NCBI GenBank assembly: GCA_012522135.1
Contig: JAAYLA010000375.1
Location: forward strand, 20,309-84,308
Origin: Bacillota bacterium
GTDB lineage: Bacteria; Bacillota; Limnochordia; DTU080; JAAYLA01
Length of the DNA stretch: 64,000 bases
Reading direction: 5' to 3'
A program made the position numbers and the translations under genes. The notes below the pieces were generated by a model, which made no database searches, was not told the DNA's origin, and saw nothing but the letters and a program-made list of their open reading frames with translations. This document shows, piece by piece, positions 6,757-48,868 of the stretch (positions are counted from its first letter, which is position 1; the number at the start of each line of letters is the position of its first letter).

Positions 6757-7979
6757 CGGTCGACCTCCCCGAAAACCGGATCTACCGTGGCGACGACGGA
6801 GACCAGGTCTGCAATCAAGTTTCCTTCCAACATCTTCGGAATCGCCATCACGTTGTAAAAGGATGGCGGCCGCACCCGCACGCGCCACGGCTTATTCGTT
6901 CCGTTGGAGACGAGGTACACCCCGAACTCGCCGCGCGGGCTTTCGATCGGCACGTACACCTCGCCCGCCGGCACGTCAAACCCGTACGAGACGATCTTAA
7001 AGTGATGAATGAGCTGCTCCATGCTCTCGCGCACTTCGTGCTTGGGCGGGCGCACGATCTTGCGGTCGTCGGTCTGCCACGGCCCGTCGGGCAGCCGCTC
7101 GAGAGCCTGTTGCACCAGCTTGTACGACTCCCACATCTCGAGCACCCTGACCATGTAGCGGTCGTACGTGTCGCCTGCCGTACCTACCGGAACCTCGAAA
7201 TCGTACGTCTCGTAGCCCATGTACGGAAAGGCTTTGCGCACGTCGTAGGAGACCCCGGTGGCGCGCAGATTCGGTCCGGTAAGCCCCCAGGCGATCGCGT
7301 CTTCCTGCGAGATCGCCCCGACCCCTCGCACGCGGTCGAGAAAGATCGGGTTTTCCTCCATGAGCGCACGCAGCTCCTCGTAACGCTTGGGGAACCGCTG
7401 CAGCCAGTCGCGCAGCATGCGCTCAAACTCCGGGGTCAGATCCGCGGCGAGCCCTCCGACCCGGAAGTAGCTAGGATTCATGCGAGCGCCGGAGACCTCT
7501 TCGAACATGTCGAGGATCCCTTCGCGCAAGTCAAAGGCGTACATGATCATGCTCTGCACGCCGAGGTCGAGGCCCGTGGTGCCGAGCCAGACGAGATGGC
7601 TCGCGATGCGCATCAGCTCGGCCAAAAGCAGCCGGACCGTCACCGCGCGCGGCGGCACCTCTAACCCCAAAAGCTTTTCCACCGCCAAGACGTAACCGAG
7701 GTTGTTTGAAAGCGGCGACAGGTAATCCATCCGGTCGATGACCGTGATCGCCTGCTGCCACGTGAGGTTCTCGGCCGTCTTCTCGATGCCCGTGTGGAGG
7801 AAGCCGATCTCGGGCGTGCACCTTACTACCGTCTCGCCTTCGAGCTCCAGGATGAGCCGGAGCACGCCGTGGGTGCTCGGATGGTGCGGGCCAACCGAAA
7901 GGATCATGCGGTCGCCGTCCAACGTTTCGAGCACTTCGTAGCCTTGATGCGTGAAATATTCCGGACTACGCGTCGCCAT
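6753..7979 (-). CDS. nuoD: NADH-quinone oxidoreductase subunit D (49 kDa)
   Basis: [17 protein letters not shown]...HPSTHGVLRL, typical NuoD; the start is placed at the ATG after a GGGGG RBS. Confidence 0.9.
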   Translation of the reverse strand: MATRSPEYFTHQGYEVLETLDGDRMILSVGPHHPSTHGVLRLILELEGETVVRCTPEIGFLHTGIEKTAENLTWQQAITVIDRMDYLSPLSNNLGYVLAVEKLLGLEVPPRAVTVRLLLAELMRIASHLVWLGTTGLDLGVQSMIMYAFDLREGILDMFEEVSGARMNPSYFRVGGLAADLTPEFERMLRDWLQRFPKRYEELRALMEENPIFLDRVRGVGAISQEDAIAWGLTGPNLRATGVSYDVRKAFPYMGYETYDFEVPVGTAGDTYDRYMVRVLEMWESYKLVQQALERLPDGPWQTDDRKIVRPPKHEVRESMEQLIHHFKIVSYGFDVPAGEVYVPIESPRGEFGVYLVSNGTNKPWRVRVRPPSFYNVMAIPKMLEGNLIADLVSVVATVDPVFGEVDR

Positions 7980-8508
7980 TCGCTTCGCCCCCAACGTTCT
8001 CGAGTTTCGGCGCGTGGAACCGGCCTTGCCGCGCGGGAGTGGGCTGCTGCGCCATCGCTCTGGGGCCTTGCAGCGGGTAGTCTTTGCGCAGGGGGTGCCC
8101 GTCCCAGTTATCCGGCATCAAGATTCGCGTCAGGTTCGGATGGCCCGTAAAGACGACTCCGAACAGGTCGTAAACTTCCCGCTCCGCGGCGGCGGCCGCA
8201 GGCCACAGGGACGCGACGGAGGGCACCTCGGGTTTCGCGTCGTCCTTCGGGCTGACGCGCAAGCGAATCCGCCGCAGCGCCGCCGTGTCGAGCAGGTGGT
8301 AGACGACTTCAAAGCGGGGCCGCCGGGGCAAGTAGTCCACGCCGCCCACGTCGAGCAGCAGGTCGAAGCCGTCCTCCCGCAGCCAGCCCGCCACCTCGAG
8401 CAGGCCGTCGGGGTCGACCTTCACCTGCGGAATTTCGAAGGGCGTAGGCATCTCCTCCACCCACTGGGGATAGCGCTCGCACAAAAAACGCACGTACGGC
8501 TCAGGCAC
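7966..8508 (-). CDS. nuoC: NADH-quinone oxidoreductase subunit C (30 kDa)
   Basis: 180-aa NuoC-like sequence; its position fits. Confidence 0.85.
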
Positions 8509-8986
8509 GCCGCATCAGACCACCTTTCGCCCGCCCGGACGCAATGGCATCCTGCAGCTTGAGTACGGCGTCGAGCACCGCGTCAGGCGTGGGCGGACAA
8601 CCCGGCACGTAAACATCGACCGGCAGCACCTCGTCGACGCCTTGTACAATCGCGTAGTTGTCGAAAATGCCGCCGCTCGACGCACACGCGCCCATGGCGA
8701 TCACCCACTTGGGCTCGGGCATTTGCTGGTAAATCCGTTCAATCACCGGCACCATCTTGTTCGAAAGGCGACCGGATACGATCATCAAGTTGGCATGGCG
8801 GGGTGAGGCACGGAACACCTCGGCGCCGAACCGGGCCGAGTCGTAGCGCGGTCCCGGCAGGTTCATCATCTCGATCGCGCAGCACGCCAGGCCAAAGGTG
8901 AGCGGCCAGATCGATGACTTCTGGGCCCAGCGCACGAATTTGTCGATGGTCGTGACAATGAAAGAATCTCCGCTGCTCACTGCCAC
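8501..8986 (-). CDS. nuoB: NADH-quinone oxidoreductase subunit B (20 kDa, N2 cluster)
   Basis: [10 protein letters not shown]...GACASSGG...GCPP motifs. A GTG start follows an AAGGGGGG RBS and overlaps the nuoA end. Confidence 0.9.
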
Positions 8987-9325
8987 TCGAATCCCCCCTT
9001 CTTCCACACGTACAGATCGCCGAGAATGAAGACGATCAGGAAGGGCACCATAACGTAGAAGCCCCATGGACCGAGGTCTTTGAGGGAGACGGCCCATGGG
9101 TAGAAAGCAACGGCCTCTACGTCAAAGACGACGAAGAGCATGGCGATGAGGTAGAACTTGACCGAGAAGCGGCCCATGAGCGGCGGGGTCGGATACCCGC
9201 TTTCGTACGGCAAATATTTTGCCGGCTCTGGGGACCTAGGACCTACGTAAGTGGCAATGAGCGAGATGACGATCGGCACCAGAAGGGCAAAGAGCACATA
9301 GATGAAGAGGGGCGTGTAAGCGCTC
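8977..9325 (-). CDS. nuoA: NADH-quinone oxidoreductase subunit A
   Basis: Three-TM protein [20 protein letters not shown].... The start is placed at the second GTG, after an AGGAGGAG RBS. Confidence 0.85.
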
Positions 9326-25450: not shown

Positions 25451-25765
25451 GACAGTCTCCCCTTTAAGCAAAAGGCTCGTTCCAAGCCGAAGCAAGGGCA
25501 TGCCAGGAACGAGCACTACGTCCTCATGCGGAGCGGCAACCAGACAGTCATAGCTGCGCGTGCGCGCGGCCTTAGACTCACGGCTTTGCGTCCCCGGCTT
25601 TCACCGGGTTTGCCCTTGACTTCTCCGTATTCAATTGAGTGCGCTCTTCGCGCGCAGAAGGATCACGCGTCATGAAGTTCGACCAAATGGCCCGGATTCC
25701 TGCTCAGTTTCGAAAAATTTCTTTAACGGACGAGGAATGCACACGGAATCAGAGAGCAGGCTCGT

Positions 25766-34508: not shown

Positions 34509-34769
34509 ATGCATCCTTGGCCCGAGTTGACCCGGCGCATCGAGCTCGACAACCGCGGACTTGAGCCCCCGGAGCCGATGGTGCGCATCTTGACCGCCCT
34601 GAAACATTTAGGGGACGGCGAGTACATTTTGGCCCACAACGATCGTGAGCCCATGTTTCTCTATCCACGGCTCGACGAGATGGGTTACGTGTACCGGGCC
34701 GAGCTGCAGGAGGACGGTTCTTGCCTCATTGCCATCCGCAAACCTCATGGCGGGGAGACAAGACCGTGA
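34509..34769 (+). CDS. DUF2249 domain protein (paralog a)
   Basis: LDNRGLEPPEPMVRILTALKHLGDGEYILAHNDREPMFLYPRLDEMGY matches the DUF2249 pattern; GAGGGAGGAA RBS. Confidence 0.7.
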   Translation: MHPWPELTRRIELDNRGLEPPEPMVRILTALKHLGDGEYILAHNDREPMFLYPRLDEMGYVYRAELQEDGSCLIAIRKPHGGETRP

Positions 34770-36040
34770 ACTTGCCCGGACTGGACGTAGAAAGCAGACC
34801 CCGGCCGGCGGTGCCGTCCCTGTACATCCAGACGGGCCTGCTTTTTCTCATCGGCGCGGCCGCGGTAATCGCTCTGCACCCTGGAGCGCTCATGGCCTCG
34901 CCCCGCCACAACCCGGTGACGCTCGTGGTCACCCACATGCTGGTTCTGGGCTTCGGCACGCTCATCACCTTCGGGGCCCTCGAGCAAATGGTACCGGTCA
35001 TCACAGGGCGCAAGGTCACCTCGGAACGCTACAGCCGCACGGCTTATGCCCTGTTTGTTCCCGGACTCCTGCTGCAGCTCGCGGGCTTTGCCGCGTGGCA
35101 GCCCTATCTGATCGCGGCCGGCGGAACCCTCATCACCTTGGGTACGGCGCTCTTTACGCTGCCTTACGTTCCGACCCTGTGGGAGCGCCTGCGGAGCGAC
35201 TTGACTGCTCCGTTCATCTTCTCGTCCCTCATCTACGTCAATTTGACCGTGTTCCTGGGTGTCGCGTCGGCCGTGCAGCTCAAAACCCTCTGGTGGCCGT
35301 GGCTGTTTTGGCACGGGCTGCCCTTCCACCTCATACTGGGAGGCCTCGGCTGGTTCACGCAGATTATCATCGGGGTGTCCTACAAGCTCATTCCTATGTT
35401 CATTACTACGACCGGCGCCGGTGATCTCCATGTGCGGCGCGTCTGCGCCTCGTTCAACATAGGCCTTCTGCTTGCCCTGCTCTCGGCCGCAGGCAGCTGG
35501 ACGGCCGGCGCCGCGGCAGGGCTGACCGTGGTAGGTGTGACATGTGCCGTGTACGCTTGGGATGTGCGCGGGATGGTCAAACGACGCATCCGCCGGCGCA
35601 TCGGGGCGGGAATGAAGCAAAGCCTGGTCGCCGTGTTGTACTTGATCCTTGCGGCTGCTCTGTCCGCCCTGCTCCTGGCCCGGGCCCTGCCCATAGACGG
35701 CCTGTCCGCAGACCGGTGGGTCGTCGTCGCCGGCCTGCTCTTCGCCTGCGGCTGGGTGGGGAGCGTGATCCTTGGCATGCTGTCCAAAATCGTGCCCATG
35801 CTCGTCTGGCTCGATCTGTTTGCCGGCCGCGTGGGTGAGCGGGATACGCCTACCATAGCCCAGTTGATCGACGAACGAGCCGTCGGGTTGGGAGGAATCG
35901 GCTACCACGCAGGTCTTCTTACCCTTGCCGTCGCTTTCGCCGCGGGACACCCGGTCGCTGCCACATGGGCGGCCGCATTGTTTCTCCTCGGCGTGGTCGT
36001 CCTGGCCGGCACGCTGATCGGAGTCTGGTCGGCGCGCTGA
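34766..36040 (+). CDS. NnrS-like 12-TM membrane protein (paralog 1)
   Basis: The GTG start overlaps the DUF2249a stop (GTGA). ~12 TM helices with conserved His; paralogous to 36726..37979 (NPVTLVVTHMLVLGFGTLITFGALEQMVPV vs HPLILGVVHATVLGWGVSVALGSLQQMAPV). The NnrS family assignment is tentative. Confidence 0.55.
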   Translation: MNLPGLDVESRPRPAVPSLYIQTGLLFLIGAAAVIALHPGALMASPRHNPVTLVVTHMLVLGFGTLITFGALEQMVPVITGRKVTSERYSRTAYALFVPGLLLQLAGFAAWQPYLIAAGGTLITLGTALFTLPYVPTLWERLRSDLTAPFIFSSLIYVNLTVFLGVASAVQLKTLWWPWLFWHGLPFHLILGGLGWFTQIIIGVSYKLIPMFITTTGAGDLHVRRVCASFNIGLLLALLSAAGSWTAGAAAGLTVVGVTCAVYAWDVRGMVKRRIRRRIGAGMKQSLVAVLYLILAAALSALLLARALPIDGLSADRWVVVAGLLFACGWVGSVILGMLSKIVPMLVWLDLFAGRVGERDTPTIAQLIDERAVGLGGIGYHAGLLTLAVAFAAGHPVAATWAAALFLLGVVVLAGTLIGVWSAR

Positions 36041-36725: not shown

Positions 36726-37979
36726 TCAGCGCATCAAAGTCCGCAACAAGTTGCCGGTGGCGACCAGGGCGCCGAGGCTCATCAGCACCGCATACCCTGT
36801 GACGTTGAACCCGAAAGGCGCGACCGCCAAGAGCCCGATCAAACCGGCATTATAAAGCGCAAGTCCGAGCCAGGCCGCGCCCTCGTGCACCATGTGACGA
36901 AAAGAGGGGACGCCTGGCTCGTCCGTTCGGTGCCAGTATTTATTGTGCCAGACGAAAAAGGGCAGGATGCGGTGAAGGTATCCTAGAATGGCGCAGCTGA
37001 GCCACCCGAAAAGACCGGCCAGACCCAACCACGCTACGAACCGGCCGTTTGCGCCCAGCCACGGAAAGGCGATAGCCCCCGCCGCGACCGCAGCTCCATA
37101 CAGGTGGGACAGCCGCACGTAGGTGACCATCGGATGCATCCGGACAGTCGGCCTGGGGGCAAAAACGGCCCGGGTGTCCCATAAAAAGAGAAGGACCGAC
37201 GCCGCGACCACGACGCGGCCCGCCTGCGCAAGCCAAGGAAGGCCCGCACCGCCGCCGAAGGCTAAGGCCCCGATTCCCGCGTGGAGCATCACGACGACGG
37301 GCCGGTCGAAGTTGGGAGCGAACTTCTTCGGCGTCAGACCGAAAAAGGGCAAAAGGTGGTACGAGATGCCCAGAACGAGCATGGCGAACCAGCCCACGAG
37401 CCCCGCCGCGGTGTGAGCGGCAAAGGCAGCTTGCCATCCGGATCCCAGCCAATTCGCAGCAAGGTTGACGGCGAGCGCGGCGCCGAGGAGCACCGTCACG
37501 GCCAGGTAGAAAAGGGCACTCTTTACGAAGGGCCGGATGCGCGACGCCGCTGGACTGCCGCCCGGAGCCATCGTGCGGACCACATTGACCAGGGCCGTCC
37601 CGACCGCCAGGAGCACGAGAAGGCTGCCGAGCACGAGGAGAACCGGGGCAAAGCGCACCATCCCCCACACCAGACAGGCGACTCCTATGCCGAAGCCGTA
37701 GGCACCGGCCGCGGCCAGGTGTTCACTGTAAAGCCCCGTACCGAAGACGACGGGAGCCATCTGCTGCAGCGAGCCGAGCGCTACGCTGACGCCCCACCCG
37801 AGCACCGTCGCGTGCACCACGCCCAGGATGAGCGGATGCCGGTACAGCCCCGACTCGTACGGAACGGCGGCGAAGGGTAAGAGCACCGCGACCCCCGCAA
37901 AGGCTAGGAGCCCGAACGCAAAGTAAGGGCCTAATGCGAACAGGGGGACGAGATTGTCGCGGGTGACCCGGATGCCCAC
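36726..37979 (-). CDS. NnrS-like 12-TM membrane protein (paralog 2)
   Basis: The GTG start sits directly after the TAA of the upstream regulator gene; paralog of 34766..36040. Confidence 0.55.
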   Translation of the reverse strand: MGIRVTRDNLVPLFALGPYFAFGLLAFAGVAVLLPFAAVPYESGLYRHPLILGVVHATVLGWGVSVALGSLQQMAPVVFGTGLYSEHLAAAGAYGFGIGVACLVWGMVRFAPVLLVLGSLLVLLAVGTALVNVVRTMAPGGSPAASRIRPFVKSALFYLAVTVLLGAALAVNLAANWLGSGWQAAFAAHTAAGLVGWFAMLVLGISYHLLPFFGLTPKKFAPNFDRPVVVMLHAGIGALAFGGGAGLPWLAQAGRVVVAASVLLFLWDTRAVFAPRPTVRMHPMVTYVRLSHLYGAAVAAGAIAFPWLGANGRFVAWLGLAGLFGWLSCAILGYLHRILPFFVWHNKYWHRTDEPGVPSFRHMVHEGAAWLGLALYNAGLIGLLAVAPFGFNVTGYAVLMSLGALVATGNLLRTLMR

Positions 37980-40290: not shown

Positions 40291-40412
40291 ACAGCACTTC
40301 GGACGGACGGGCCTTCGGAGCACCGGCAGGAAACAGGTCCAGCGCACAAGAATAACAGGTGGGACGGGCCCGTCAGGTCGGCCTGCAGCTTGAGGAGGTA
40401 CGCCCCCGTCCG

Positions 40413-43400
40413 ATGAGTTTGCAACGTGTGTCCGTGCACCGTCCCGTCGCGCTCTCCATGTGCGTTCTCGCCGCCTTGGTCATCGGCCTGATCTCCCTTG
40501 ATCGCATCGGCATCGATCTTTTGCCCAATTTGGAGTATCCTACGCTGGCCGTTGTGACCGTTTACCCGAATGCGGATGCCGAGAGCGTCGAAAGCGACGT
40601 CACGCTGCCTATTGAACGCACTTTATCGACCGTATCGGGACTGCGGCAGCTTGAGTCGCTGAGCATGGAGAACGCGTCGCTCGTCATGGCCACCTTCGAG
40701 TGGGGCACCGACTTAGGCGACGCCTTCGAGGAAATCAACTCGCTGCTCAGCGTGGCGAGCCTTCTGCTTCCATCCGATGTCCAGCGCCCGATCGTCGTCA
40801 AGCTCGATCCGTCCCAAGTGCCCGTTCTCAATATCGCGGTGACCGGCGAGACGGACCTTGTTGCGTTGACGGGCCGCGTAGAAAGGGAAATCGTGCCGGT
40901 CATCGAGCGCGTTCCTGGCGTCGCCCAAGTCAGTGTAGCCGGCGGCGCGTACCCGCAGATCAGCGTCTACTACGACACCCAGGCACTCCGGGAAAGGGCG
41001 CGGCTCAATCCCCTGGATATCCAGGCGATGCTGCAATACCAAAACGCCGTCGTACCCGCGGGTACACTTGAGGTACGTCCGGAAGAACTGGGCCTTGAGG
41101 CGGGTGACGTACGCCGGTTCCCGCTGCGCGTCGGTGCCAACTTGGAAAGCATCGACGACCTGCGCAGCCTCGTCATCTCCGTCGAACAGCCCGCGACGGG
41201 AGGCGACGCGTTCGGCCTGTCGGCGCTGCTTCCGCCCGACGTCATCCGCCTCGGCGATGTGGCGCAGATCGTCGAAGAAGTGCGGCGCGTGGAAGGGCAC
41301 ACGCGGGTCAACGGCGAGCCGGCCGTTGTCCTGCGCGTGCTGAAAGAGAGCGAAGCGAACACCGTCGAAGTCTCCCGGGGGGTCCTCGCGGCGGTCGCTG
41401 CCTTGACCGGGCAACTTGCGGGCGATCTAACCCTTGAGATCGTCACCGACCAGGCGCAATTCATCAACGAGTCCATCGACAATTTGTCCTGGAGCGCCCT
41501 TGTCGGTGCCGTCCTCGCCGTCCTGGTCCTCACCCTTTTCCTGCGTTCGTGGCGCGATATCGTCGTCATCGCGGTGGCGATCCCGCTGGCGTTTGCCGTC
41601 GCCGTCACCTTGCTTCATTTCGGCGGTTACACCCTCAACTTGATGACCCTGGGCGGACTGGCCATTGCCGTAGGAATGCTCGTCGACAATGCGATCGTCG
41701 TGCTCGAGAACATTTTCCGCTTGCGGGGCCTTGGCCTGTCGCCTAAGGAGGCGGCCGTCCAGGGGGCGAGCGAGATGGCGCCGGCGATCGTCGCGTCGAC
41801 GCTTACGACGGTAGCCGTATTCGTCCCGCTTATCTTCATGCGCAGTTTAGCCGGGTATCTGTTCAAGGAGTTGTCCCTGGCCGTCGTCTGCGCGCTGGCG
41901 GCGTCGCTGCTCGTTGCTCTCACCGTCGTTCCGATGCTAGCGGCCTACCTCCCCGATCGGTCGAGGAGCACCGCGCGGGCAGCCACTTCCCGGCCGGCGG
42001 AGGGCGTCCATCAAGGGATCGCAGATCGGTTGACCCCCCACTACGCCCGGGCGATTCGGAAGGTGCTCCGTCGTCCTTGGCTTGGGGTCGTGATCGCGGG
42101 CGCCTTCACCATAAGCCTGGTGTTCCTCCCCAGGCTCCTCGACGTCGGTTTCGTGCCCGAGATGGACGGCAGCCTCGTGACAATCGACATTCAGCTCCCG
42201 CCGGGCACGCCCCTGCACACCACGGACAAGGTCGTGCGCGACGTCGAAGCCTATCTGGAAGCCCTGCCCGAAGTCGCTCTGCTGTCGGTGCAGGTGGGAA
42301 ACCAAGGCGGCACGGATTATCTCAGCATCGTACAGGAGATGCCGGTCAACCAGGCCCGGGTTCACGCGCTCCTTGTCCCGCCCGGCGAGCGCTCTCGCTC
42401 GTCCCATGAACTGGCCCGGATCATCGGCAGCGAACTGCCCCTGCCCCCGGAGGCCGCCGTGCGGATCAGCGCCGACCGGGCCGTCGATGCACTCGGCGAT
42501 GATTTCGCGAGCGGGCTGACGCTGGAGATCCTCGGCCCGGAATGGGATGTACTCCAGTCCGTCGCGGGCCGCATCGCCGAAGAGCTGAGACGGACCCCCG
42601 GCTTCGTCAACGTCACTTCCACCGCAGAAGATGTGAACCAAGTGCTCTTTTTTGAAGTAGATAGGGTGCAGGCCGGAAGAGCGTTGCTGCCGGCCGGGCA
42701 GGTCGGCCTGACGGTCCGCCTGGCGCTGACGGGTCTTCAAGCGACTACGCTGCACGTCGACGGGCGGTCGGTGCCGGTAGTCATCAAGCCCAGTCCGAGC
42801 GAGACCGAAAATCTGGAGGCCTTGCAGTCGCTGCGGGTGTGGAATTTGCAAAGCGACGCGACAGGCATCCCGCAGGCGGCCCGCTTCGAAGCGATCACCA
42901 CGGCGGACGCCCCGGTCATCACCGATGCGCCGAGAACCATTCGGCACCTCGATCGACAACGGGTCGCGACGGTGAAAGCCCAGCTCGACGGCGTTGACCT
43001 CGGCAAGGCGCGGCGGCTGGCCGAGCAGATCGTGGCTGCTACGGATCTTCCAGCAGGTTACGAGGTGCGAATGGCAGGAATTCATAGGACGCTGGATGAA
43101 TCAATTAAGGAGTTGGTTCTTGCGCTAGGGCTTGCGGTGCTGTTCGTGTACATGGTGATGGCAGCCCAGTTCGAGTCCTTGCGGTATCCGGGCATCATCA
43201 TGATTACCGTGCCCCTGTCGGCGGCGGGAGGCTTCTTCGCCTTGTGGTTGACCGGCCAGCAGCTGAACGTACCGGCCTTCCTCGGACTCCTCCTGCTCGT
43301 CGGCATTGCGGTGAACAACGGCATCGTTCTGGTCGACACGATCGGCCGCTTCCGGCGTTCGTTGCCCCTGGAAGAGGCGATCGTCGAAGCGTGCCGCGTG

Positions 43401-43613
43401 CGGCTCCGGCCCATTTTGATGACCGCGCTGACAACGATTCTGGGGCTGGTTCCGCTCGCCCTCGGGTGGGGAGAAGGCACCGAAATTCAGGTTCCCTTGG
43501 CCCTGGCAGCGCTGGGCGGGTTGATCTCGGGAACGCTACTCACCCTTTTTGTGGTGCCGGCCTTTTACCGGCTCTTCTCTGGCACCATTGAGACGCCCGC
43601 ACGGGCCGATTGA
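40413..43613 (+). CDS. RND-family efflux transporter (AcrB/HAE-like)
   Basis: ~1060 aa, 12 TM plus two large periplasmic loops; the start is ambiguous (40359 GTG-type or the 40413 ATG). Confidence 0.8.
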   Translation: MSLQRVSVHRPVALSMCVLAALVIGLISLDRIGIDLLPNLEYPTLAVVTVYPNADAESVESDVTLPIERTLSTVSGLRQLESLSMENASLVMATFEWGTDLGDAFEEINSLLSVASLLLPSDVQRPIVVKLDPSQVPVLNIAVTGETDLVALTGRVEREIVPVIERVPGVAQVSVAGGAYPQISVYYDTQALRERARLNPLDIQAMLQYQNAVVPAGTLEVRPEELGLEAGDVRRFPLRVGANLESIDDLRSLVISVEQPATGGDAFGLSALLPPDVIRLGDVAQIVEEVRRVEGHTRVNGEPAVVLRVLKESEANTVEVSRGVLAAVAALTGQLAGDLTLEIVTDQAQFINESIDNLSWSALVGAVLAVLVLTLFLRSWRDIVVIAVAIPLAFAVAVTLLHFGGYTLNLMTLGGLAIAVGMLVDNAIVVLENIFRLRGLGLSPKEAAVQGASEMAPAIVASTLTTVAVFVPLIFMRSLAGYLFKELSLAVVCALAASLLVALTVVPMLAAYLPDRSRSTARAATSRPAEGVHQGIADRLTPHYARAIRKVLRRPWLGVVIAGAFTISLVFLPRLLDVGFVPEMDGSLVTIDIQLPPGTPLHTTDKVVRDVEAYLEALPEVALLSVQVGNQGGTDYLSIVQEMPVNQARVHALLVPPGERSRSSHELARIIGSELPLPPEAAVRISADRAVDALGDDFASGLTLEILGPEWDVLQSVAGRIAEELRRTPGFVNVTSTAEDVNQVLFFEVDRVQAGRALLPAGQVGLTVRLALTGLQATTLHVDGRSVPVVIKPSPSETENLEALQSLRVWNLQSDATGIPQAARFEAITTADAPVITDAPRTIRHLDRQRVATVKAQLDGVDLGKARRLAEQIVAATDLPAGYEVRMAGIHRTLDESIKELVLALGLAVLFVYMVMAAQFESLRYPGIIMITVPLSAAGGFFALWLTGQQLNVPAFLGLLLLVGIAVNNGIVLVDTIGRFRRSLPLEEAIVEACRVRLRPILMTALTTILGLVPLALGWGEGTEIQVPLALAALGGLISGTLLTLFVVPAFYRLFSGTIETPARAD

Positions 43614-43715: not shown

Positions 43716-44123
43716 ATGGCTAGAGCAGTACGTCGTCAAACGCCCGCACAGAGGCTTGCTACCTTGTTCGGGGCAACCTTGCTGATTCTGATCTTGGCGC
43801 TATTAGTGGTCTCGTTCGTACAGGGAAACCGCCGGACGGTTTCCGACAGCCCGATGCAGCGTCTGATCTCGGCACCCACGGCTGACCTCTTCTACGTATA
43901 TGAGACAGCGAGGGTTGAGGACGGGGTCATGTACGTGACGGGCCAGTTCGTCGGTGTGCCCAATGTCACGCCCGAAACCGCCGAGGAATGGCAAGAGCAC
44001 ACGAAAAAGGTCGCCGAGGTCATCGTGAAGGAGCTCAAGGGTCTTCCTACCGTTTCGGCTCTCTCGCTGAAGCAATACCACCGGGGCGAACTCGTGGGCG
44101 AGATTACACTCCCCGTGAAGTAG
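43716..44123 (+). CDS. membrane-anchored hypothetical protein (N-terminal TM, 135 aa)
   Basis: AAGGGGGAT RBS; TM LATLFGATLLILILALLVVSFV; followed by a terminator. Confidence 0.45.
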   Translation: MARAVRRQTPAQRLATLFGATLLILILALLVVSFVQGNRRTVSDSPMQRLISAPTADLFYVYETARVEDGVMYVTGQFVGVPNVTPETAEEWQEHTKKVAEVIVKELKGLPTVSALSLKQYHRGELVGEITLPVK

Positions 44124-45238: not shown

Positions 45239-45355
45239 CCTGTCTGTCGTGGACAAAAGCGTTCAAAGGTGCGCCGAAGGCGGATGAATACAAAGAACCG
45301 GACGGACGTCCGGCGAACTGCCAACAACCATTCTAACCTACTCCGTCATTTGCTG

Positions 45356-46147
45356 TCAACCTGTAGATGCCGACTCCTCCGGGTTTTCAAGCCCGCCGCC
45401 GTCCGGATAGGCGACCGCCATTAACGTCAATCCGTGGGGCGGAGCGGTGCTGCCCAACTCCTCGCGCCGGCCGGACGCCAAAGCCTTCGGTACGCACTCG
45501 GCGCTGCGCCGGCCCAAGCCGACTTCGAGGAGGGTACCCGCCATGATGCGCACCATGTTGTAAAGAAACCCCGAACCCTCAATCTCGAAGTGGACAAGGT
45601 CGTTCTCACGCCAGACGTCGGCTCTGTACATGCGGCGCACGGTGCTTTTGCTGCCTCCCCCGGTTGAACGGAAGGCAGCAAAGTCGTGCTCGCCGACGAA
45701 GTGCCGCGCCGCGCGGCGCATTTTCTCTACGTCGACGGGACGCGGCACGAACAGTGCGTAGCGGTGCCAAAAGGGGGACGGTGTCGCACGCACGAGCCAC
45801 GTATAGCGGTACGTCTTGCTCAAGGCCCAGTACCGTGCATGAAAGTCTCCAGGCACTTCTGCGGCCTCGCGCACTTTGATGTCCCACGGCAGTTGCGTAT
45901 TGACGGCAGCGGGAAAGCGCTCGACCGGAATGCGCGACCGGGTGTGAAAGTTCACCACCTGGCCGCGGGCGTGCACCCCCGCGTCGGTGCGGCCTGCTCC
46001 GATCACCTGCACGGGTTCTTGGCAAGTCCGGGCGAGTGCCTCTTGCAGCACGCTTTGTATGGTCGGACGGTCAGGCCGGCCCTGATCTTGAAAGCCGCAG
46101 TAGCCGGTACCGTCGTATTCCACTACCAACTTGATGTTGCGGGTCAC
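45356..46147 (-). CDS. truA: tRNA pseudouridine(38-40) synthase
   Basis: IKLVVEYDGTGYCGFQDQ...GAGRTDAGVHA catalytic Asp motif; GTG after GAGGGAGGG overlapping the ecf ORF stop. Confidence 0.9.
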   Translation of the reverse strand: MTRNIKLVVEYDGTGYCGFQDQGRPDRPTIQSVLQEALARTCQEPVQVIGAGRTDAGVHARGQVVNFHTRSRIPVERFPAAVNTQLPWDIKVREAAEVPGDFHARYWALSKTYRYTWLVRATPSPFWHRYALFVPRPVDVEKMRRAARHFVGEHDFAAFRSTGGGSKSTVRRMYRADVWRENDLVHFEIEGSGFLYNMVRIMAGTLLEVGLGRRSAECVPKALASGRREELGSTAPPHGLTLMAVAYPDGGGLENPEESASTG

Positions 46148-48453
46148 GAAGCCCTCCCTCCAATGCGGTTGGCCAGCACAATGACAACGGCCGAGCACAC
46201 AAGCGCCGCAAAGACCAGGATGTCCCGCACATGCCAGGACTCCGTCCGCGGCCGCCATGGCGCGCCGTCGGCGTATCCTCGGAGGACTAAAGCGTCTCCG
46301 AGCCGCTCGGCTCTGCGGAGTACAGCGGTGCTCAAGGGCACGACCAGCGTGACGACGCGAGACCACACTCCCCGGACACCGCGCAAAAACTGCACTCCCC
46401 GCATCGTTTGGGCCCGCGTGATGCGCGCTGCCTCCTCAGTGAGCCTAGGAAACATGGCCATGGCCACAAGGGTGCCCGCGAGAAGCGTTCCGAGGGGCAG
46501 ACCGACGCGCTCGAGAGGCCGCAAGAGCGCGGAAAACGCTTCCATCATCCGGCTGAGGCCCGCCGCACGGCCCACCCAGAGCAAGGCGGCAACCGTCAAG
46601 AACATCCGCAGTCCAGCGAAGGCGCCCGTTCCGAACAGGCCCCTAGGTCCCGCGGCGGCAACTCCCCCGCCGCCGAAAACGGCGGCGATCAGCATAAACG
46701 GCAATAAGGCCAGGAACGCTCCCTTGACTGTACGCCACGGCGTCTTGGTCAGGGCCAATAGGGTGAGGACAACGGCCCCGGCCGCCGCAAGGCCCGACCA
46801 ACGGGTTACCGAGACGACGCTGAGGGCAAGGACAGACGCGCCGAGGACGAGAGAGCGCGCATCGGTCCGGTTTCCGGGGGCTTCGCTGCGCTCTGAGGCC
46901 GAAACTGCAGGAGCTTCCCTTCGCACCTCCTCGCCGCTTTCGTCGTCGCTTTCCAGGCTCCAGACGGCGGTCTCGTGTTGCGTCGTTACCTTGCCGTCTT
47001 CAAGCCGGACTACCCGGGATGCGGCCCCGTAGAGCAGGTCGTGATCGTGCGTCGTGAACAATACCCCAGCCCCGTCCTTCTCTACGAGCTCGCGCAGTAG
47101 GCGGGCCACTATGGCGGCGGAAGGCCGGTCGAGACCGGCTGTCGGCTCGTCGAGCAAGTACAGCCGCGGCCGCTGTGCGAGGCACGCGGCCAGGGCCACT
47201 TTGCGCCTTTCCCCTCCTGAAAGGGCAAACGGCGATCGATCAAGAAACTCGGGCCCTAATCCGACCGCCCCAAGGGCCCCTTCGATGCGCTCCCGCCACT
47301 CTGCCTGCGGAATGCCGAGGCAACGCAGACCGAAGGTAAGCTCCTCCTTCACCGTCGCCGCGAAGAGCTGGGCCTCCGGCTGCTGCATCGCCAGTCCGAC
47401 GCCAGGCAGCAACGCCCGCACCGCCTTGGCCCGGGCCGCCCGCATTCTCCGGCCTCTGCCGGCGGGCGGAATGGGCGTGCCCAGCACCGTAAGCCGACCG
47501 CCGCCGTGCGGTTCGAGCCCCGCCGCCACTTGGAGTAAGGTGCTTTTTCCGGCACCCGAACGTCCGCCCAAGGCAACGGCCTCTCCCTCGTAAACCGCCA
47601 AGTCCACACCGGTTAAGACCGGCCGGGCACTGGCCGGATAGCGAAAAGCCAACGCCTCCATGCGCAATACTGCCGGCGTATTGCCGCCCCGCTGCCGCCG
47701 CAGTCGCCAGGCACCGGGTACCCCTTGCGGCGTCGCCTGCGGCCGTCCGATGCCCCACTCGTCGAGCCGGTCGCCGAGTTCCCACAGGCGGCGCGGCGGG
47801 CCGTCGAAGACAAGCCGTCCTTTCCCGAGCACTACCACTCGGTCGGCCTGCGCCGCCTCTTCAGGACTGTGTGTGATCCAAAGGCAACCCGCCCCGGCTG
47901 AACGCAAGTACTCGCCGACCACGCATGCCGTCAGACGCGCGGAAAGGGGGTCGGCGAAGGCATTTGGCTCGTCCAGGACCAGCAGGTCGGGATGGCGAGC
48001 CAGCGCCCCGGCCAGCGCAATCCGCTGCAGCTCCCCGCCCGAGAGGGCGCTCGTAGGCGAATCTAAGGCATGGAGCATGTCTACCCGGCTGAGCCATTGG
48101 CGAATGCGCAAGGCCACCTCGTCCTCGGATAAGCCGAGAGGCGCAAGGGCCAGACGCAGGTCGTCGCCGACCGTCAGCCCTACCACGTGATGTTCAGGGT
48201 GCTGTGACAAGTAACCGATGCGCAAAGGCGGCGGTGTCCGCAGCCGCCCCGAGGCCGGGGAGACCAGGCCTACGGCAAGGTACGCCAGCGTCGATTTGCC
48301 CGACCCGTTCGCGCCCATCACGGCGACCCATTCTCCGGGTTCCACGCGCAAGGACAGTGCGTCCAAAGCGCGCAGCTCACCGCCGCGGGGCCCCGGATAG
48401 GTGACCGTGACATCCTCGAAGGAAAGGAGGGGCGAGAAACGAGGCATATTCAC
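46144..48453 (-). CDS. ecfA1A2T: energy-coupling factor (ECF) transporter, apparent single-polypeptide fusion EcfA1-EcfA2-EcfT
   Basis: One 769-aa open frame: ATPase 1 (GANGSGKST, LSGGELQR, LLVLDEP), ATPase 2 (GRSGAGKST, LSGGERRK, LYLLDEPTAGLD), an acidic linker, then a 5-TM EcfT-like domain with coupling-helix motifs TRAQTMRGVQF and RRAERLGDALVLRGY. Confidence 0.75.
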   Translation of the reverse strand: MNMPRFSPLLSFEDVTVTYPGPRGGELRALDALSLRVEPGEWVAVMGANGSGKSTLAYLAVGLVSPASGRLRTPPPLRIGYLSQHPEHHVVGLTVGDDLRLALAPLGLSEDEVALRIRQWLSRVDMLHALDSPTSALSGGELQRIALAGALARHPDLLVLDEPNAFADPLSARLTACVVGEYLRSAGAGCLWITHSPEEAAQADRVVVLGKGRLVFDGPPRRLWELGDRLDEWGIGRPQATPQGVPGAWRLRRQRGGNTPAVLRMEALAFRYPASARPVLTGVDLAVYEGEAVALGGRSGAGKSTLLQVAAGLEPHGGGRLTVLGTPIPPAGRGRRMRAARAKAVRALLPGVGLAMQQPEAQLFAATVKEELTFGLRCLGIPQAEWRERIEGALGAVGLGPEFLDRSPFALSGGERRKVALAACLAQRPRLYLLDEPTAGLDRPSAAIVARLLRELVEKDGAGVLFTTHDHDLLYGAASRVVRLEDGKVTTQHETAVWSLESDDESGEEVRREAPAVSASERSEAPGNRTDARSLVLGASVLALSVVSVTRWSGLAAAGAVVLTLLALTKTPWRTVKGAFLALLPFMLIAAVFGGGGVAAAGPRGLFGTGAFAGLRMFLTVAALLWVGRAAGLSRMMEAFSALLRPLERVGLPLGTLLAGTLVAMAMFPRLTEEAARITRAQTMRGVQFLRGVRGVWSRVVTLVVPLSTAVLRRAERLGDALVLRGYADGAPWRPRTESWHVRDILVFAALVCSAVVIVLANRIGGRAS

Positions 48454-48529: not shown

Positions 48530-48868
48530 CTACACCAGCTCAATCTGGGCAATCGGCGCCGCGTCGCCGCGCCGCACGCCGACCCGCAAAATCCGCGTGT
48601 ATCCGCCCTGCCTCTCGGCGTACTTCGGCGCCACCTCTTCAAAAAGGTGCTTTACCGCGGCAGGATTGTTCAAAACCGCCGCCGCCTGGCGCCGCGCGGC
48701 CAGATCCCCTTGCTTGCCCAAGGTGATCAGCTTTTCCGCTACGGGCCGAATGGCTTTGGCGCGGGTTTCGGTGGTCCGGATGCGCCCATTGAGGATCAGA
48801 GCAGCCACTTGATTGCGGATCAAGGACTTTCTGTGCCCGTGAGTGCTTGCCAGACGTGACTTCTTCAC
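48530..48868 (-). CDS. rplQ: 50S ribosomal protein L17
   Basis: [25 protein letters not shown]..., typical L17. Confidence 0.95.

Follow-up and report, generated by a model that had tools for sequence, protein, structure and literature searches.

A probable inherited fusion of the complete EcfA1-EcfA2-EcfT energising module in a sub-lineage of Limnochordia

A single open reading frame (ORF) within a 64-kb stretch of Bacillota DNA (GenBank contig JAAYLA010000375.1, positions 20,309 to 84,308; the whole stretch is referred to as the window) is very probably a genuine, inherited gene fusion that encodes the entire energising module of an energy-coupling factor (ECF) transporter, EcfA1-EcfA2-EcfT, as a single polypeptide of ~82 kDa, in a sub-lineage of the Limnochordia (Bacillota). 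In many Gram-positive bacteria, vitamins are imported mainly by ECF transporters, which are pursued as targets for antibiotics. Two of their features are debated, namely the dynamic association of S-components with the shared module and the role of the C-terminal bundle of the ATPases. The fusion adds a member to an architecture that, although unstudied, is found repeatedly in bacteria and is already present in sequence databases. Of some, if modest, interest are the repeated independent origin of this architecture and the fact that the fusion was accompanied by loss of the C-terminal bundle of the ATPases.

The public gene calls of the fusion begin not at the upstream GTG codon (Table 1) but at an alternative ATG at 48447, two codons downstream, which yields 767 residues; one such call, P0001, is 100% identical to the window protein. 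A Pfam scan revealed two ATP-binding cassette (ABC) ATPase domains (ABC_tran) followed by a CbiQ domain (PF02361) at residues 535-728 (E-value 1.4e-13; 51.4 bits against a cut-off of 25). The top two NCBIfam models are, in order, ECF_ATPase_1 (TIGR04520; residues 11-240, profile positions 2-240 of 269) and ECF_ATPase_2 (TIGR04521; residues 268-497, profile positions 6-231 of 279). Sequence matches to solved subunits agree with this assignment: the EcfA1 half aligns with residues 19-244 of 279 in 4huq_B, the EcfA2 half with residues 18-224 of 290 in 4huq_A, and the EcfT part matches 4hzu_T and 4huq_T (E-value ~7e-12, with the 4hzu_T alignment covering both coupling helices) and also 5d3m_D. The EcfA1 half contains the Walker A motif GANGSGKST (residues 47-55, nt 48289-48315), Q84 of the Q-loop, the signature LSGGELQR (137-144), the Walker B motif LLVLDEP with D161 and E162, and the H-loop residue H195. 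The corresponding elements of the EcfA2 half are GRSGAGKST (297-305, nt 47539-47565), Q357, LSGGERRK (411-418), D435 and E436, and H469. All of these ATPase motifs in both halves, as well as R685, G686 and R725 of EcfT, are invariant across 41 fused homologues.

These results bear out most of what the initial annotation had read from this locus. Its single 769-residue ORF with A1, A2 and T components is confirmed by the ORF list, Pfam and NCBIfam, and the two full ABC ATPase domains with Walker A, signature and Walker B motifs were all located in the translation and the alignments. The acidic, low-complexity linker that it quoted, ESDDESGEEVRREAPAVSASERSEAPG, corresponds to residues 501-527 and is followed, as described, by an EcfT domain with both A-x-x-x-R-G motifs at 681-686 and 721-726; the junctions that it placed near 47700 and 46900 fall at nt 47668-47733 and 46861-46965. 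The ribosomal-protein and truA operon context was likewise correct, with rplQ upstream and truA-rplM-rpsI downstream.

Conservation argues that the fusion is real. The identical 767-residue protein is encoded by ~49 contigs in assemblies of NCBI, JGI/IMG, ENA and Logan, with an NCBI record (NLN29478.1) named 'ATP-binding cassette domain-containing protein' from a Firmicutes/Bacillota bacterium. Eight further proteins (P0002-P0009; 762-849 residues, 40-63% identity) align collinearly across both junctions. Within the clade of the window protein, referred to as the window clade, the three domains are 44-51% identical versus 11-12% for the junctions, and the A1-A2 junction ranges from 20 to 30 residues (11% mean identity) and the A2-T junction from 31 to 52 residues (12%), with the frame always kept. 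The combination of conserved domains and variable in-frame linkers is the signature of selection for a tethered protein and speaks against a sequencing error. P0008 and P0005 are encoded in the same slot, rplQ-[AAT]-truA-rplM-rpsI, and the rplQ-truA slot is shared by the loci L081, L083, L085, L088, L092 and L093.

The origin of the fusion can be approached through the class itself. The nearest named relatives of the window RpoA are Limnochordia/Limnochordales metagenome-assembled genomes (MAGs), and the cultured Limnochorda pilosa stands at 76% identity. Three genomes reached via RpoA were compared at the slot: L. pilosa (L091) and two MAGs (L092 and L093). In L. pilosa (AP014924, locus 7966-9142), rplQ is followed directly by truA with no ECF genes in the slot; the module has been lost or moved in the lineage of this cultured type species of the class. 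L092 carries separate ecfA1, ecfA2 and ecfT genes of 273, 283 and 256 residues, with a short gap between A1 and A2 and a 4-nt overlap (ATGA) between A2 and T, and L093 carries separate genes of 258, 316 and 264 residues with junction overlaps of 16 and 8 nt. These split modules share class, slot and gene order with the window, and on the T-domain tree described below the T domain of L092 is placed within a wider neighbourhood around the window clade; they differ in consisting of three genes and in retaining full-length ATPase C-terminal domains. Split, absent and fused states are thus found in one slot, and therefore the fusion probably arose inside the Limnochordia from the ordinary three-gene arrangement between rplQ and truA. 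The loss of two stop/start overlaps would have merged the three genes, with nothing more needed. The initial annotation had held that three ORFs in related genomes would speak against the fusion. Such ORFs do exist in L092 and L093, but the fusion stands, with closer relatives at 40-63% identity remaining fused in the slot; what the split genomes reveal is the source of the fusion.

In ECF ATPases, each subunit bears two C-terminal helices that assemble into a four-helix bundle when the subunits dimerise (PMC4245157). The alignments with the L. brevis subunits end before these helices, at 244/279 in EcfA and 224/290 in EcfA'. When the window clade is set against the split Limnochordia proteins, ~35 residues are missing from its A1 beyond the 'WGIGRP' segment, and its A2 has lost the entire 50-60-residue C-terminal segment. 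The distance from the H-loop of A1 to the Walker A lysine of A2 is 101-115 residues in the window clade versus 123-131 in the split L092 and L093, and that from the H-loop of A2 to the start of EcfT is 56-74 residues versus 98-132, so the window clade is shorter than its split relatives by 15-25 residues after A1 and by 40-70 after A2. The post-A2 distance is also short (32-85 residues) in most other fused groups, and P0015 is still more reduced there (anchor distance 43). In the P0035 group, both ATPases are still followed by long segments (anchor distances 151 and 83), and in P0046, P0049 and P0050 the post-A2 distance is 97-102 residues, as long as in the split forms.

An AlphaFold2 model of the fusion, built on the 41 fused sequences, is confident, with a mean predicted local distance difference test score (pLDDT) of 87.6 and a predicted template modelling score (pTM) of 0.87, and contains no helical bundle after either ATPase core. 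Disorder among the junction residues is confined to 243-246 and 502-527, the A1-A2 junction having pLDDT values of 51-67 and residues 502-527 values below 50. EcfT is modelled as seven long helices (532-547, 552-568, 573-593, 603-650, 654-684, 692-724 and 742-764). Judged from the alignments and the model, the helices of the EcfA-EcfA' four-helix bundle appear largely gone in the window clade, with variable linkers in their place. The covalent A1-A2 and A2-T links may now keep the module together in the bundle's place, which would have made the bundle dispensable. That tethering functionally replaced the bundle, and that the same trade of a gained fusion for a shortened or lost bundle was repeated in independent lineages, is put forward tentatively and with somewhat less than even confidence. 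If true, the main job of the bundle would simply be to keep the two ATPases together, and natural single-chain modules, including the S-A-A-T chains described below, would offer ready minimal scaffolds on which the structure and mechanism of S-component docking and release could be studied.

The full A1-A2-T order (A-A-T) extends well beyond this clade. Among the best 120 full-length matches, ~45 clusters combine ABC_tran with CbiQ, and all ten of the fused proteins scanned show the order A-A-T. They include a Synergistaceae protein, a cluster labelled Limnochordia bacterium and RefSeq proteins of Bifidobacterium named 'energy-coupling factor transporter ATPase' (WP_172144100.1 of B. panos, 796 residues; WP_033510215.1 and WP_412235703.1 of B. 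pullorum, 772-774 residues), one Bifidobacterium cluster having 463 members. Fused A1-A2 proteins without T (470-620 residues) are also numerous among the full-length matches. The description of a full A1-A2-T fusion as 'unusual' in the initial annotation was consequently overstated: many independent clusters share the order, and the protein itself had already been deposited as NLN29478.1. Its remark that A1-A2 fusions are known in some lineages agrees with the literature, which recognises such fused ECF ATPases (PMC6828968, citing Rodionov 2009 and Eitinger 2011). A contig search with the fused alignment and generic ABC motifs picked up 80 ABC ATPase loci, most of them unrelated, in which the match stopped near residue 490, and was uninformative on taxonomy and fusion distribution.

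A search of 1.84 billion representatives with the T domain only yielded five at E<=1e-30, all of them fused proteins of the window clade, and ~13 of the 150 best matches are long proteins with a C-terminal T domain; fused forms are thus a recurring minority. One match, P0408 (1531 residues), has seven distinct stretches that each align with query residues 194-237, the T domain's coupling-helix 3 region, and looks like a repeat of this segment. A neighbour-joining tree of T domains (Kimura distances, ~236 columns, 100 bootstraps), a crude tree whose deep nodes are unresolved, recovered the window clade with 99% bootstrap support, the P0035 group with 86%, P0015 with P0321 with 100%, and the Bifidobacterium proteins P0010 and P0429 with 99%. 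All fused proteins together received 0% (0/100), as did the window clade plus P0015 to the exclusion of stand-alone EcfTs (0/100); within the neighbourhood that holds the split L092 domain, the branching is not resolved. The fusions of P0015 and P0035 lie in the ribosomal slot and those of P0068 and P0045 elsewhere. Because of this tree, the differing genomic contexts and the differing junction anatomies, the sequences indicate that the A-A-T fusion probably arose several times independently.

The closest known system is the canonical group II EcfA-EcfA'-EcfT module of Bacillota, represented by the L. brevis (4HUQ, 4HZU, 4RFS) and L. delbrueckii (5D3M, 5JSZ) structures and by the ecfA-ecfA'-ecfT genes between rplQ and truA in B. 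subtilis. The window fusion has the same components, order, slot, ATPase and coupling motifs and likewise lacks an adjacent S-component gene, but it is one polypeptide instead of three, the bundle helices are largely missing, 22- and 35-residue disordered tethers join its domains and the T domain is divergent. Fused A1-A2 ECF ATPases also carry tandem nucleotide-binding domains in one chain, to which the window protein adds T. In Limnochordia-like genomes, the P0015 group (726 residues) and the P0035 group (~825 residues) share slot and domain order with the window and form separate clades on the T tree. The Bifidobacterium A-A-T proteins have the same A1-A2-linker-T order, are collinear at 30-32% identity and show a similarly short A2-to-T spacing; unlike the window fusion, they are of independent origin by the T tree, and their gene immediately follows an S-component gene, which it overlaps by 4 nt, in what looks like a group I-like dedicated unit. 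In B. panos (L084 7405-10391), for example, a 199-residue S-component gene (PF07155/PF12822) overlaps the A-A-T start by 4 nt, giving a compact two-gene ECF transporter.

An entire ECF transporter in one chain is found on a human oral metagenome contig (L094 1412-4669). This protein, P0047 (1041 residues), comprises a YkoE-like S-component (PF09819, residues 13-132), two ABC ATPases and CbiQ/EcfT (796-995), and a thiamine pyrophosphate riboswitch (RF00059, 66 bits) lies just upstream of the gene at L094 1412-1513. Several 1041-residue members of this type occur on different contigs. The S-component of such a chain would be unable to dissociate, which bears on models of ECF transport. As for earlier descriptions, ABC subunits have been noted as fused, 'occasionally three' of them (PMC3971661); in the literature searched, no paper describing an A-A-T ECF module was found, an absence there being no proof of absence, and no solved structure describing an A-A-T ECF fusion was found.

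By homology and from the model, the two nucleotide-binding domains would form an ATP-sandwich dimer, with ATP bound and hydrolysed at two intact composite sites. The two arginine-bearing coupling helices of EcfT would dock in grooves of the two ATPases, and the 35-residue acidic, disordered tether (D+E=10 versus K+R=4) would bridge the end of EcfA2 and the first transmembrane helix of EcfT. The T component supplies the docking surface for S-components (PMC3971661). The covalent links would enforce a 1:1:1 stoichiometry, and the view of the initial annotation that the fusion fixes stoichiometry and topology is a reasonable prediction. The module may be a shared one of group II that powers the uptake of vitamins and other micronutrients through S-components whose genes lie in other parts of the genome. 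The window has the group II layout, in which rplQ and truA flank the module and no S-component gene adjoins it, and the ribosomal slot together with the absence of an S-component gene from the window fits a shared module with scattered S-components; the polytopic membrane ORFs present are NuoJ, NuoH, an AcrB-family pump, SecY and two without a Pfam match. Group I (dedicated) ECF transporters such as CbiMNQO, NikMNQO and BioMNY carry their S-component gene (CbiM/N, NikM/N or BioY) in the same operon. This is not the layout of the window, where the neighbours of the fusion are rplQ and truA and no CbiM/N or other S-component gene is adjacent.

Several points weigh against this account of an inherited, single-chain, shared module. 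The scores of the two ATPase halves, 300.8 for TIGR04520 (cut-off 315) and 305.8 for TIGR04521 (cut-off 330), fall slightly short of the equivalog thresholds because C-terminal profile positions are unmatched, namely the last ~29 for A1 and the last ~48 for A2. The T domain is divergent, its next-best matches after the window clade being stand-alone EcfTs of ~260 residues at <=38% identity. The S-component partners are putative, the 64 kb of the genome covered containing no S-component-like ORF, and L. pilosa demonstrates that the module is dispensable in this slot for at least some members of the class. A single-chain product is predicted from the gene, and the proposed replacement of the bundle by a tether draws on alignments, a predicted model and just two split references of the class. 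Three of these points, the unusually divergent T domain, the loss of the genes from the slot in L. pilosa and the sub-cut-off equivalog scores, would also suit a dedicated metal module of the CbiO-CbiO-CbiQ type, or one drifting to another role or to loss, as would the score of 238.1 for the TIGR01166 cbiO subfamily, above its cut-off of 211.8. Nevertheless, ECF_ATPase_1 followed by ECF_ATPase_2 are the models that score best, the gene occupies the rplQ-ecf-truA position that is canonical for the housekeeping module and, unlike the Bifidobacterium fusion, it has no S-component neighbour. Decay is contradicted by the conservation of all catalytic and coupling residues, and a metal-specific or drifting module is accordingly considered very improbable.

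An assembly or sequencing artefact would mean that three genes are read through owing to missing stops or frameshifts at the junctions, and the separate genes of L092 and L093 suggest that small changes in this slot would merge the frames. Such an error would have to recur in the independent assemblies and pipelines that gave the ~49 contigs, and in eight diverged orthologues, as well as in many more distant proteins, a single frame runs across both junctions even though indels occur there. Moreover, the ATPase C-terminal segments are truly absent and not frameshifted, which leaves this explanation scarcely credible. It is also improbable, if slightly less so than a metal-specific role, that the gene is fused and separate subunits are nonetheless made, by proteolysis in the disordered linkers or from internal translation starts. 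Both linkers are disordered and poorly conserved, which would make them protease-accessible, and a Shine-Dalgarno-like GAGGAGGTG lies within the coding region of the A2-T linker. No in-frame ATG, GTG or TTG follows it at a usable distance, and an internal start in this linker was rejected on these grounds. A tether that stays intact would account more readily for the missing C-terminal dimerisation helices, and the convergence of independent lineages on the same fusion suggests that the covalent link itself was selected. A genuine fusion, translated and maintained as one chain, thus remains the favoured reading.

A single-chain housekeeping module with 1:1:1 stoichiometry and no bundle bears on both of the debated features of ECF transporters. 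The fusion requires the N-terminus of EcfT to be cytoplasmic and is direct evolutionary evidence that this end faces the cytoplasm and can be reached from the C-terminus of EcfA2; it also suggests that a tether can stand in for the bundle. Such a module could suit expression and cryo-electron microscopy. For annotation, proteins of ~770 residues of this kind would be better named EcfA1-EcfA2-EcfT fusions than generic 'ABC ATP-binding protein'.

Table 1. Position of the fused gene, its parts and its immediate neighbours in the window (residues numbered from the GTG start).
Feature	Window coordinates	Strand	Residues	Remarks
Whole fused ORF ecfA1-ecfA2-ecfT	46144..48453	-	769 aa	Uninterrupted frame from GTG at 48453
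EcfA1-type ABC ATPase domain	47734..48429	-	9-240	Q-loop, signature, Walker B and H-loop intact
A1-A2 junction	47668..47733	-	241-262 (22 aa)	TPQGVPGAWRLRRQRGGNTPAV; takes the place of most EcfA1 C-terminal helices
EcfA2-type ABC ATPase domain	46966..47667	-	263-496	All catalytic motifs intact
A2-T tether	46861..46965	-	497-531 (35 aa)	VWSLESDDESGEEVRREAPAVSASERSEAPGNRTD; acidic, disordered; in place of the EcfA2 C-terminal helical domain
EcfT (CbiQ-family) transmembrane scaffold	46147..46860	-	532-769	
Coupling-helix motif 1, AQTMRG	46396..46413	-	681-686	Q682, R685 and G686 conserved
Coupling-helix motif 2, ALVLRG	46276..46293	-	721-726	
Stop codon of the fusion	46146-46144	-		TGA
rplQ (L17)	48530..48868	-		Directly upstream of the fusion; same neighbour in L081, L083, L085 and L088
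truA	45356..46147	-		Directly downstream of the fusion; PF01416

The genes around the fusion, all on the same strand, run in the order rpsK, rpsD, rpoA, rplQ, fusion, truA, rplM, rpsI. A scan of the 76-nt gap between rplQ and the fusion for promoters and terminators found no promoter-like or terminator-like site. At the other end, the probable GTG start of truA (46147-46145) overlaps the stop codon of the fusion in the sequence GTGA. A strong sigma-70-like site (TTGACA, 18 nt, TAGAAT; 11 of 12 matches) lies at 45330-45359 on the minus strand, at the end of truA and just upstream of rplM; it suggests a promoter for rplM-rpsI of their own, the regional count of such sites not being above the shuffled expectation.

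Beyond rpsI and converging on it is a gene for an AcrB/RND-family pump of 1084 residues (40359-43613, plus strand), a neighbour that is also kept in the relatives L081 and L083. Between the pump gene and rpsI lies an ORF of 135 residues without a Pfam match (43716-44123, plus strand), and L083 has an unassigned gene of 135 residues at the matching place. The two polytopic membrane ORFs without a Pfam match (E<=0.001) are found at 34721-36040 on the plus strand (439 residues) and at 36726-37979 on the minus strand (417 residues), with ~10-14 hydrophobic segments each. The sole Rfam match in the window is a cyclic di-GMP-I riboswitch aptamer (RF01051) at 25532-25624 on the minus strand, a full-length match of 71.8 bits.

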